A stretch of 64,000 bases of DNA, taken from a virus. Shown here piece by piece: positions 6,883-8,547 of this stretch (within the stretch, counting starts at the first letter, position 1; every line of letters begins with the position of its first letter). A program made the translations under genes and the position numbers. The notes below the pieces were generated by a model, which saw nothing but the letters and a program-made list of their open reading frames with translations, ran no database searches and had not been told where the DNA came from. The DNA lies in the IMG/VR virus record IMGVR_UViG_3300033146_001382, positions 96,001-160,000 of that record; one strand, 5' to 3'.

Positions 6883-8547
6883 ATGGCAGTAACTATAATA
6901 AAAAAATTTTGGAACGGCACTGAATATAAAGATATAGCTAAAATTGTGTTTACTAGCCCTAATTTTACTAGCCCATATCAAGCCGGCACAAGGTCTCACA
7001 TGCAACCTGGTGGTCAGTACATGGGGACTTGGTACGAAGCTGTAGATTTTATGTATCGACAAAGGGTTGATCAAGATTATGCTAGTTTACCAGATGAAAT
7101 GGAGAGTTTTTTTGGCCAGGTTACTGTTTCTGGGGGGTTTGATTTTTCTACTGATACTACTTTAACTGTTACACATAAATATGGGAATACTTTTGATTTA
7201 ATAGGCCCTGGTACATATGCTAATATACTATATAGGGATAAAGATAATTATGGAGCTATTAGTGAAAGTACTGCTTCTTCAGGTATTGATGGTGATACTA
7301 TTGTTCAATTGACTTTAACAGATGTAGTAGGTGATGCTATTTTAAACAACTGGTTAAACCAAACTACTAGTGGTACTTTAACGGATACTATAGTAGGTCA
7401 AGCTAGTCCAGTAGGCGAAATTACTACTATTTCTGGAGTGTATAATCCTACTGTTGTAGCTAATGATGAATTTGAGTCCCATTTATCTATAGAGACTACT
7501 ATAGCTGTAAGTGGTGCTTTGACAAGTGAAGCCAATGAGACGGTAAGTGGCACTCTTACTACTCAATTAGATGAGGTATTAGAAGGAGTTTTAGGTGATG
7601 GACTAGGTACACCAGCTTCTAGTACTATTTCTGGCGCTATGTCTGTAATTGCTACAGGGCACGATTACGGCGTTACACTTAGTGGTGTGTTGGGCGTACT
7701 TATATCAGAAACAATGCCACCTATTGGTAGTATTTTTACTACTATAGTTAGTGGTGAGGTAGTAGCTTATACTAATGATTCACGACATGTTACTATTAGC
7801 GGTACGGTTGGTGGACAATTATCAGGTACTGTAACTAGTGGGGCAGTGTATCCTAATGTGGGTGGGACTATCTCTGGTAATATGACAGGTAATTTAGAAG
7901 GTTATTACTTTGAAGAGTTAGTTTCTAGTGATGTTACAGGTACCATGAATGTAGCTCTTTCTGGTAGAGAACATGTAGTGTTTACTACGTTAGGGACCTG
8001 TCCTGTAGATGGTATAGCAGTAGGCCCTATAGACGGTACCATTTACGGTGAGATGGCTGGTAATTTTACGAAACCCAGAGAAAAGATGTACCATCAATAC
8101 TCGGATATAGCGATAAATTCTACTACAGTTATTCCTAGACCTAGGAGACATCATGGTGGTAATTCTATTTTATTTGCGGTTACTTTTGGGGAAGCGTATG
8201 ACTGTAGGTTGACTGCCTGGGATGATGATACTCATTCTACTACTAATAATAAAGTATTAGCAGAAGAACATTATAAAGTAGATGCTATAGCCTATAGATC
8301 TAATATAGAGAATACAGCACATACTCCTACTTTTAGAAAAAACACTAATTTAGTATTTCCTCCCGCAATGGATGCAGTGTTGCGGGGTAATGACAGATAC
8401 TACGGTGATTTTGATTTAATTTTTTCTATTGAAGTAGATGAGTACGGTGAGTACTTAGCATTTATTCCCAGATTAGTAGACATTGATGATTCATTTATTG
8501 CAGGAAGTTATGATTTTATAACCACATTACATTACAAATATACTTAG
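6883..8547 (+). CDS. Structural protein with central Thr/Ser/Gly-rich region
   Basis: 554 aa with AAGGAG RBS. 14 SG dipeptides lie in the central ~280 aa, 8 of them as T-x-S-G. Confidence 0.7.
   Translation: MAVTIIKKFWNGTEYKDIAKIVFTSPNFTSPYQAGTRSHMQPGGQYMGTWYEAVDFMYRQRVDQDYASLPDEMESFFGQVTVSGGFDFSTDTTLTVTHKYGNTFDLIGPGTYANILYRDKDNYGAISESTASSGIDGDTIVQLTLTDVVGDAILNNWLNQTTSGTLTDTIVGQASPVGEITTISGVYNPTVVANDEFESHLSIETTIAVSGALTSEANETVSGTLTTQLDEVLEGVLGDGLGTPASSTISGAMSVIATGHDYGVTLSGVLGVLISETMPPIGSIFTTIVSGEVVAYTNDSRHVTISGTVGGQLSGTVTSGAVYPNVGGTISGNMTGNLEGYYFEELVSSDVTGTMNVALSGREHVVFTTLGTCPVDGIAVGPIDGTIYGEMAGNFTKPREKMYHQYSDIAINSTTVIPRPRRHHGGNSILFAVTFGEAYDCRLTAWDDDTHSTTNNKVLAEEHYKVDAIAYRSNIENTAHTPTFRKNTNLVFPPAMDAVLRGNDRYYGDFDLIFSIEVDEYGEYLAFIPRLVDIDDSFIAGSYDFITTLHYKYT

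Follow-up and report, generated by a model that had tools for sequence, protein, structure and literature searches.

T-x-S-G, a linear peptide motif enriched in the outer virion proteins of several phage lineages, is a candidate glycosylation tag associated with a family of GT4 glycosyltransferases

To our knowledge, only a few mycobacteriophages have been shown to glycosylate their virions with phage enzymes, and we know of no acceptor motif for this modification. In the GtfA/GtfB system, a glycosyltransferase (GT) of family GT4 starts cytoplasmic O-linked N-acetylglucosamine on serine-rich-repeat adhesins, and further GTs extend it. Virion glycosylation has been described for the mycobacteriophages Che8, Corndog and Myrna, and, in the account of that work given in PMC12619734, phage-encoded GTs are proposed to work in the cytoplasm and to glycosylate virion proteins of the phage itself as a shield, the glycans being placed at the C-termini of capsid or tail-tube subunits with no sequon defined (Freeman et al. 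2023, via PMC12619734). Chloroviruses likewise glycosylate their own capsid protein, and B736L of NY-2A (A546L in PBCV-1) is a virus-encoded cytoplasmic GT-B enzyme that binds guanosine diphosphate (GDP)-mannose and whose acceptor is unknown (PMC9614988). Here we analysed a 64,000-nucleotide stretch of DNA from an uncultured jumbo phage (hereafter the window; bases 96001-160000 of the 189-kb IMG/VR virus record IMGVR_UViG_3300033146_001382, labelled G0 or G000 and estimated to be 72% complete), focusing on the tetrapeptide T-x-S-G (TxSG) in its virion proteins and on a GT4 enzyme, GT4 no. 1, encoded at 54559-55866 of the window. As proposed for the mycobacteriophages, phage-encoded GTs would here be cytoplasmic and modify virion proteins of the same phage. 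Unlike in those phages, the candidate sites, which can be located from sequence alone, are an internal tetrapeptide scattered through baseplate, tail and fibre proteins, where it occurs in beta strands, in repeats and in linkers, and no C-terminal acceptor tail of the mycobacteriophage type was found among the TxSG sites; unlike the candidate considered here, the chlorovirus glycans are N-linked at non-canonical sites (PMC9614988). The literature searched contained no description of the TxSG motif or of the GT4 no. 1 family acting on phage proteins, and the 'Moraphage' paper (PMC12619734) gave no clear indication that this lineage is its subject.

To quantify the motif, the window was split into a virion block, comprising open reading frames (ORFs) that start before 44100 (14,399 amino acids, aa), and the enzyme genes after it (6,597 aa). 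The virion block contained 38 TxSG against 7.85 ± 2.7 expected from 2000 per-protein shuffles, and the enzyme genes contained 2 against 1.4 expected. A preliminary description of this DNA had claimed such a virion-specific enrichment from hand counts; the enrichment survived every shuffle and permutation control, per-protein shuffling included, and all of the counts were reproduced. The stretch 7123-7965, in frame with ORF 6883 (6883-8547), holds 14 SG dipeptides and 8 TxSG, and further motifs were found in ORF 5733 (3), ORF 18429 (4), ORF 31357 (9), ORF 33450 (3) and ORF 37017 (2). Block shuffles over 10, 20 or 40 residues still gave virion-block expectations of only 8.8-10.1, so local composition is not the cause of the excess and was ruled out. 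The remaining 17 orderings of T, S and G yielded counts of 3-26 in the virion block. When the virion block was taken over the entire record (42-140 kb), T.SG (the dot standing for x) occurred 67 times against about 17.4 expected; without the tape measure the values were 61 and 14.1, and for the tape measure alone 6 and 3.3. When all 16,000 gapped tripeptides (a.bc and ab.c) were scanned, T.SG ranked first of the 16,000 in the record's virion block (z = 12; runner-up z = 6.7) and also in the complete 269-kb relative G003, which counters the objection that the motif was chosen post hoc. Eight of the nine motifs in ORF 31357 stem from four copies of one repeat unit; with these copies collapsed, the window retained about 32 motifs against 7.9 (Poisson P ~1e-10), and T.SG stayed in first place when ORF 31357 was left out of the scan.

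The specificity of the signal was then assessed by residue substitution, codon use and sequence context. T.SG stood 4.1x over expectation, the best single substitutions (A.SG, T.QG and T.SS) reached only 1.4-1.7x, and S.SG, T.TG and T.SA were near expectation (1-1.7x) in the virion block. The x position was mostly I, V or L, with S, T or A preceding the motif and T or A following it. Codon use for T, S and G within the motif matched background, indicating selection at the peptide level rather than at the DNA level; together with the 17 different SG hexamers used, this rules out a DNA-level cause. The 40-residue flanks of the 67 sites, with the motif masked, were no more alike than random windows, except in ORF 31357, so recent duplication or paralogy as the sole cause holds for that ORF only. 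TxSG is accordingly a short motif enriched beyond composition, residue order and repeat ancestry, as is expected of a sequon. These results, with the comparisons below, establish T-x-S-G as a genuine linear peptide motif that arose independently at many positions of outer virion proteins in no fewer than three phage lineages.

The same excess was found in the relatives of the window phage. The virion block of G003 contained 47 TxSG against 17.3 expected; its orthologue of ORF 6883 (321 aa) does not have the long insertion of the window protein, yet carries 5 TxSG, and its orthologue of ORF 37017 carries 4. All 13 of the 13 relatives showed 3.4-6.4x TxSG in the 20 kb around the ORF 6883 gene. 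The 13 orthologues of ORF 6883 contained 3-9 TxSG each against 0.4-0.8 expected, distributed over 5 conserved columns and about 25 positions seen in only one or a few sequences; T and G never varied in the conserved columns, where the third residue was S or T. GT4 no. 1 was present in every relative whose contig reaches the region (52-85% identity), so this lineage offers no contrast between phages with and without the enzyme.

Two further lineages were strongly enriched; all three share GT4 no. 1 and are otherwise unrelated by BLAST. G014 (159 kb) has nine proteins in common with the window phage by BLAST, namely enzymes and small proteins plus two weak matches to unannotated large proteins. 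Its large proteins downstream of the baseplate-J gene contained 24 TxSG against 4.2 expected, with the same single-residue specificity, and a GT9-like gene, GT4 no. 1 (with an intein), GT4 no. 2 and a GDP-mannose dehydratase gene lie directly downstream of these TxSG-rich tail genes on the same strand. Only one relative of the G014 baseplate J and tail proteins was found, also with the GT4. In the G022 group, the GT4 gene lies 3-6 kb downstream of large tail proteins in 21 of the 22 relatives of a 1074-aa protein, and TxSG at this locus reached 2.5-6x. The exception was G018, whose complete genome has terminal repeats and contained no GT4 no. 1 family member by hidden Markov model (HMM) search. 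It held 27 TxSG against 17 expected, with T.SG at rank 285, compared with 90 against 18 in its relative G022. With its heptad-repeat protein (38 copies) removed, G022 still had 52 against 15.5, and T.SG came top after CxxC and Pro-rich patterns. Over 52 orthologue pairs, G022 contained 45 motifs (9.3 expected) and G018 contained 14 (9.2 expected). The G018 residues at aligned motif sites were QISS, TIAA, NLSG, TAGS, QVSN, TSNG and TFSQ; G018 orthologues thus carry other residues at these sites, indicating that the shared fold does not need the motif. Among all proteins of the window phage, GT4 no. 1 was the only one that G003, G014 and G022 all have and G018 lacks. Two G022 proteins show the motif in further settings. 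A 663-aa protein (5670-7661) has six tandem Pro-rich units with PPTPSGTG and looks like a mucin-type linker, and an 877-aa fibre (32118-34751) consists of about 60 heptads x-x-T-L-S-G-Q, has 38 TxSG and has no BLAST orthologue in G018. Since the motif occurs in a Pro-rich linker and in heptad repeats as well, it is not tied to one structural context.

To compare phages with and without the enzyme, the observed/expected ratio of T.SG was calculated over whole genomes with one ORF caller. Phages carrying GT4 no. 1 gave ratios of 3.2 (G0), 2.4 (G003), 2.5 (G014), 5.0 (G022), 1.8 (G023), 2.3 (G024), 2.2 (G027) and 1.0 (TJE1). Those with a distant GT4 subfamily (about 250 bits) gave 0.7 (G013) and 1.9 (S-CBS4), and those without GT4 no. 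1 gave 0.9 (phiKZ), 1.25 (T5), 1.7 (SPO1), 1.95 (S-PM2) and 1.6 (G018); the virion proteins of T4 taken alone reached 1.9x. As phages without the GT come to about 2x, a background up to about that level exists without the enzyme. Strong enrichment (at least 2.4x) was seen in 4 of 8 phages with the GT4 versus 0 of 8 without it or with the distant form (Fisher P 0.04; Mann-Whitney on the ratios 0.007; neither corrected for relatedness). GT4 no. 1 is therefore not sufficient for strong enrichment, as 4 of its 8 carriers do not exceed background. The co-occurrence of TxSG and GTs raised in the preliminary description gave a mixed picture: a strong excess occurred only with GT4 no. 1 and was lost in G018, but half of the carriers remained at background.

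We next characterized the enzyme. GT4 no. 1 (54559-55866, + strand), the candidate TxSG-linked transferase, matched PF00534 (41.7 bits) and PF13692 (37.6 bits) as well as the Pfam model 'GT4-conflict'. Its AlphaFold2 model (predicted local distance difference test, pLDDT, 92.7) has the two-Rossmann-domain GT-B fold, with at least 500 GT-B matches. The best PDB match among those listed was chlorovirus NY-2A B736L (3oy2; E 1.5e-24; template modelling (TM) score 0.74/0.81), with an E-value six orders of magnitude below that of the next solved structure and a sequence identity of 16%. The enzyme is conserved at 52-85% identity across more than 40 contigs of the lineage, and its family comprises 694 clusters (50% identity) at E <= 1e-30, many of them intein-interrupted. 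Judged from general knowledge, the likeness to GtfA/GtfB lies in a GT4-family enzyme, short Ser-containing acceptors and extending transferases; the GtfA/GtfB acceptor is a disordered Ser-rich repeat and not T-x-S-G. GtfA was not among the PDB sequence matches or the top fold matches of GT4 no. 1, nor was a partner resembling GtfB found. Homologues of both GT4 genes of the window are interrupted by inteins in frames of 727-848 aa (G014, at 8475-11021 of its locus L101; G005 61658-64156; G016; G017). Inteins usually reside in highly conserved, important genes.

Based on these observations, we favour TxSG as a candidate glycosylation tag (sequon) on outer virion proteins, a reading to which we give a little less than an even chance. 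TxSG would serve as a recognition or acceptor tag for post-translational modification in the cytoplasm during assembly. The leading candidate modification would be O-glycosylation of the motif Ser or Thr, started by GT4 no. 1, after which the GT2 enzymes and sugar-modifying enzymes would extend and tailor the glycan with amino, acyl and methyl groups, in a set that varies between relatives. We infer the attachment of a sugar, the acceptor residue and the responsible enzyme from the pattern of motif and gene. A tag read by GT4 no. 1 accounts for the sharp specificity, the loss in G018, the linker sites and the gene adjacency in two lineages. The preliminary description had proposed that all five GTs at 54559-63667 decorate the motif; the GT4 at 54559-55866 does track it, but the others do not, and even close relatives have different GT2s and tailoring enzymes. 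More doubtful is the wider proposal that TxSG is the acceptor sequon of a widespread phage GT4 family on which strain-specific cassettes build different glycans, giving a modular coat in several unrelated lineages.

Several observations weigh against a glycosylation tag. G023, G024, G027 and the Tetrasphaera phage TJE1, the only cultured carrier found, have a bona fide GT4 (458-515 bits; 502 bits in TJE1) and reach only 1.0-2.3x; a tag does not account for these four weakly enriched carriers. Counted by lineages, the association amounts to three gains and one loss, the Fisher P of 0.04 preceding any phylogenetic correction, and in the GT4 tree the phages with strong enrichment do not group as a single clade. 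In ORF 6883, all 8 motifs fall in ordered beta strands of a model with pLDDT 92, and known cytoplasmic protein O-glycosylation is mostly on flexible Ser/Thr-rich tails or repeats. In addition, the GT4 pair of the window follows replication genes and stands beside a PD-(D/E)XK nuclease and ThyX-like and Mom-like proteins, a setting that fits nucleic-acid modification too. The idea of a phage-GT O-glycosylation sequon, put forward in the preliminary description, thus gained from the specific enrichment, the GT4 link and the G018 loss, and was weakened by the four weak carriers and the location in strands.

The location in strands bears directly on the alternative that TxSG is purely structural, starting or registering beta strands and fibre repeats without being modified while the GTs act on another target, an explanation with a sizeable minority chance of being right. 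ORF 6883 (6883-8547, + strand) encodes a 554-aa virion protein of the post-tape-measure baseplate and tail block, with conserved N-terminal (1-100) and C-terminal (405-554) parts and a variable all-beta insertion between them. The TxSG-rich part of this insertion (7123-7965, + strand) is made of long beta strands, most of which have [T/I/A]-[VIL]-S-G in their first five residues, and the 8 motifs are TVSG (two), TTSG, TISG (four) and TLSG. The AlphaFold2 model is all-beta, the insertion being a run of strands of 12-18 residues, and in its DSSP string 8/8 motifs lie within strands, 7/8 of them in the strand's first five residues. A beta-turn motif, the structural option named in the preliminary description, is disfavoured by this model, which places all eight in predicted strands and not in turns. 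The preference for I, V or L at x with T or A next is an amphipathic strand pattern, the invariance of T and G while S varies in the conserved columns likewise suits a structural role, and many motifs sit in overt repeats (ORF 31357 and the G022 heptad fibre with its 38 copies). The roughly 2x background excess in GT4-less phages and the half of GT4-bearing phages that are not strongly enriched point the same way. Yet G018 orthologues at 30-67% identity keep the fold without the motif, and the near-expected counts of T.TG, S.SG and T.SA make the signal unusually sharp for a generic strand preference. A structural role is also hard to fit to the occurrence of the motif in a Pro-rich linker, to the unrelated flanking sequences, and to phiKZ, T5 and G013, which have no excess at all.

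It is also conceivable, but unlikely, that TxSG is a linear tag with a non-glycosylation role (phosphorylation, a chaperone or assembly factor, or a protease) and that the sugar island is aimed at phage DNA or RNA or at host envelope precursors. The position of the island within a block of replication and nucleotide metabolism, adjoining the PD-(D/E)XK nuclease, would suit such targets, as would the ThyX or ThyX-like gene that separates the GT4 genes of G0 and those of G003, the inclusion of a Mom-like enzyme and of a methyltransferase in the conserved core, the match of GT4 no. 1 to 'GT4-conflict' and the incomplete association of motif and GT4. The arrangement resembles phage DNA glycosylation (T4 alpha/beta-glucosyltransferases; RB69 and DLP3 arabinosyl-5-hydroxycytosine; PMC13326640; Pyle et al. 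2024) in having a GT cluster beside nucleotide-metabolism genes and thymidylate-synthase homologues, but the thymidylate-synthase relative in the window is a putative ThyX-type protein. Known handles for DNA glycosylation need a ThyA-fold enzyme or a methyltransferase-plus-TET enzyme (PMC13326640; Pyle et al. 2024). The ThyA fold (PF00303) was found neither in G000 (72% complete) nor in the complete G003, so this known route to a glycosylation handle appears to be missing; a TET/JBP search gave no match, but its control search likewise returned none. Further evidence against this alternative is that neither a ThyA-fold hydroxymethylase nor a hydroxylase was found in the record or the complete relative, that the GT4 accompanies tail genes and not replication genes in G014 and the G022 group, and that no other gene of the window phage matches the phyletic pattern of the motif. 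The variable island moreover builds amino, acyl and methyl sugars, more elaborate than the DNA glycans in the literature seen.

If TxSG is indeed a glycosylation tag read by the GT4 no. 1 family, sugar-coated virions would be predictable from sequence alone, and glycan shielding would be common in environmental phages, jumbo phages included. It would also provide a small enzyme-plus-tag pair for bench tests and for engineering glycosylated phage particles, and would explain large sugar islands without export genes in phage genomes. Should the motif prove structural, no other short motif has so great an excess in these virion proteins, and it would be a useful marker of this class of beta-rich tail protein.

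Concerning the motif-bearing proteins, about 90 homologues of ORF 6883 were found, all from uncultured material; some (320 aa) lack the insertion, and others have Kelch or different inserts in its place. ORF 6883 matched no Pfam or PHROG family and had no tblastn match in cultured phages. Foldseek searches of its model in PDB and BFVD yielded no meaningful similarity (TM scores 0.05-0.13), and the VIA-align matches, all at Z <= 6.6, were small barrels from baseplate and tail-tip proteins of phages. The other carriers all lie on the + strand: ORF 5733 (5733-6404), a 223-aa virion protein with its 3 TxSG against 0.19 expected; ORF 18429 (18429-28658), a 3409-aa virion protein with 4 against 1.4; ORF 33450 (33450-37013), a 1187-aa virion protein with 3 against 0.83; and ORF 37017 (37017-37994), a protein of 325 aa whose weak match to a PorZ-like beta-propeller stays below the cutoff. 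ORF 31357 (31357-33390, + strand) encodes a tail-fibre-like protein of 677 aa that has an F5/8 type C domain and matches phrog_11660 (tail protein), and its repeat unit F-x-D-L-x-D-T-P-S-T-Y-S-G ... S-T-G-S-G occurs in four copies with two TxSG per copy. Upstream of the window, a 141-aa protein of G000 (49102-49527) without family assignment has 4 TxSG, the top density in the genome.

The sugar island itself contains the five GTs named in the preliminary description, all above Pfam cut-offs: GT4 at 54559 and 56594, and GT2 at 59626, 61270 and 62723. By Pfam, the gene order is GT4, a 218-aa ORF without assignment, GT4, a zinc-ribbon/CapR/Mom-like fusion, a methyltransferase, GT2, a Gfo/Idh/MocA oxidoreductase, GT2, a hexapeptide acyltransferase, GT2 and a methyltransferase. 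The 218-aa ORF between the two GT4 genes (55900-56556, + strand) encodes a divergent ThyX-like protein: it matched Pfam Thy1 only at E 0.13, and its atlas feature score to viral clusters of the 'FAD-dependent thymidylate synthase family' was 0.98. In G003 this slot is occupied by a canonical ThyX (E 7e-66), and the window protein could be a neofunctionalised nucleotide-modifying enzyme. GT4 no. 2 (56594-57712, + strand) is kept in the lineage and in G014 and is absent from the strongly enriched G022. The fusion of a zinc-ribbon/CapR N-terminal part with a Mom-like domain (57722-59134, + strand; PF25680, E 1.6e-8) is conserved in G003 and is possibly a nucleic-acid modifier. A second copy of this fusion (49% identity) lies inside the virion gene block of G003 at 191639-193249, and its counterpart in the window is only a 600-bp gap (11514-12108). 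G0 and G003 have in common GT4 no. 1 (63%), GT4 no. 2 (64%), the Mom-like fusion (54%) and the methyltransferase at 59112 (52%). The variable tailoring part (59112-63999, + strand) extends from that methyltransferase to the last one and runs off the window; apart from that methyltransferase its genes lack a counterpart in G003, whose tailoring set consists instead of a 2-epimerase, a GT17, a deacetylase, a formyltransferase, a C-methyltransferase and a 4,6-dehydratase.

Regarding the wider layout, the GC content is 33%, and essentially all genes lie on the + strand. ORFs 247-44021, behind the putative tape measure, make up the baseplate, tail and fibre block; replication genes (clamp, intein-bearing RecA, DnaB, primase and PD-(D/E)XK nuclease) come next, and then the sugar island. 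At the end of the virion block, 40201-42165 encodes a tail-fibre-region protein with a SPRY domain (E 2e-8) and 42168-44021 a protein that, like ORF 31357, has F5/8 type C matches, here weak ones; these two neighbours are probably receptor-binding modules. RecA (714 aa, 45956-48100) is split by an intein with a LAGLIDADG endonuclease domain, and its G003 orthologue (355 aa) has no intein. Two of the comparison phages showed other repeated patterns. G013 encodes a 5,279-aa virion protein (60827-76666) with about 90-100 copies of a Cys/Pro repeat (PE.C, P.IC and Q.PE at 93-97 copies), and the whole genome of G018 has an unusual density of CxxC (zinc-ribbon-like) motifs, with CP.C at 36 against 1.4 expected and C.NC at 29.

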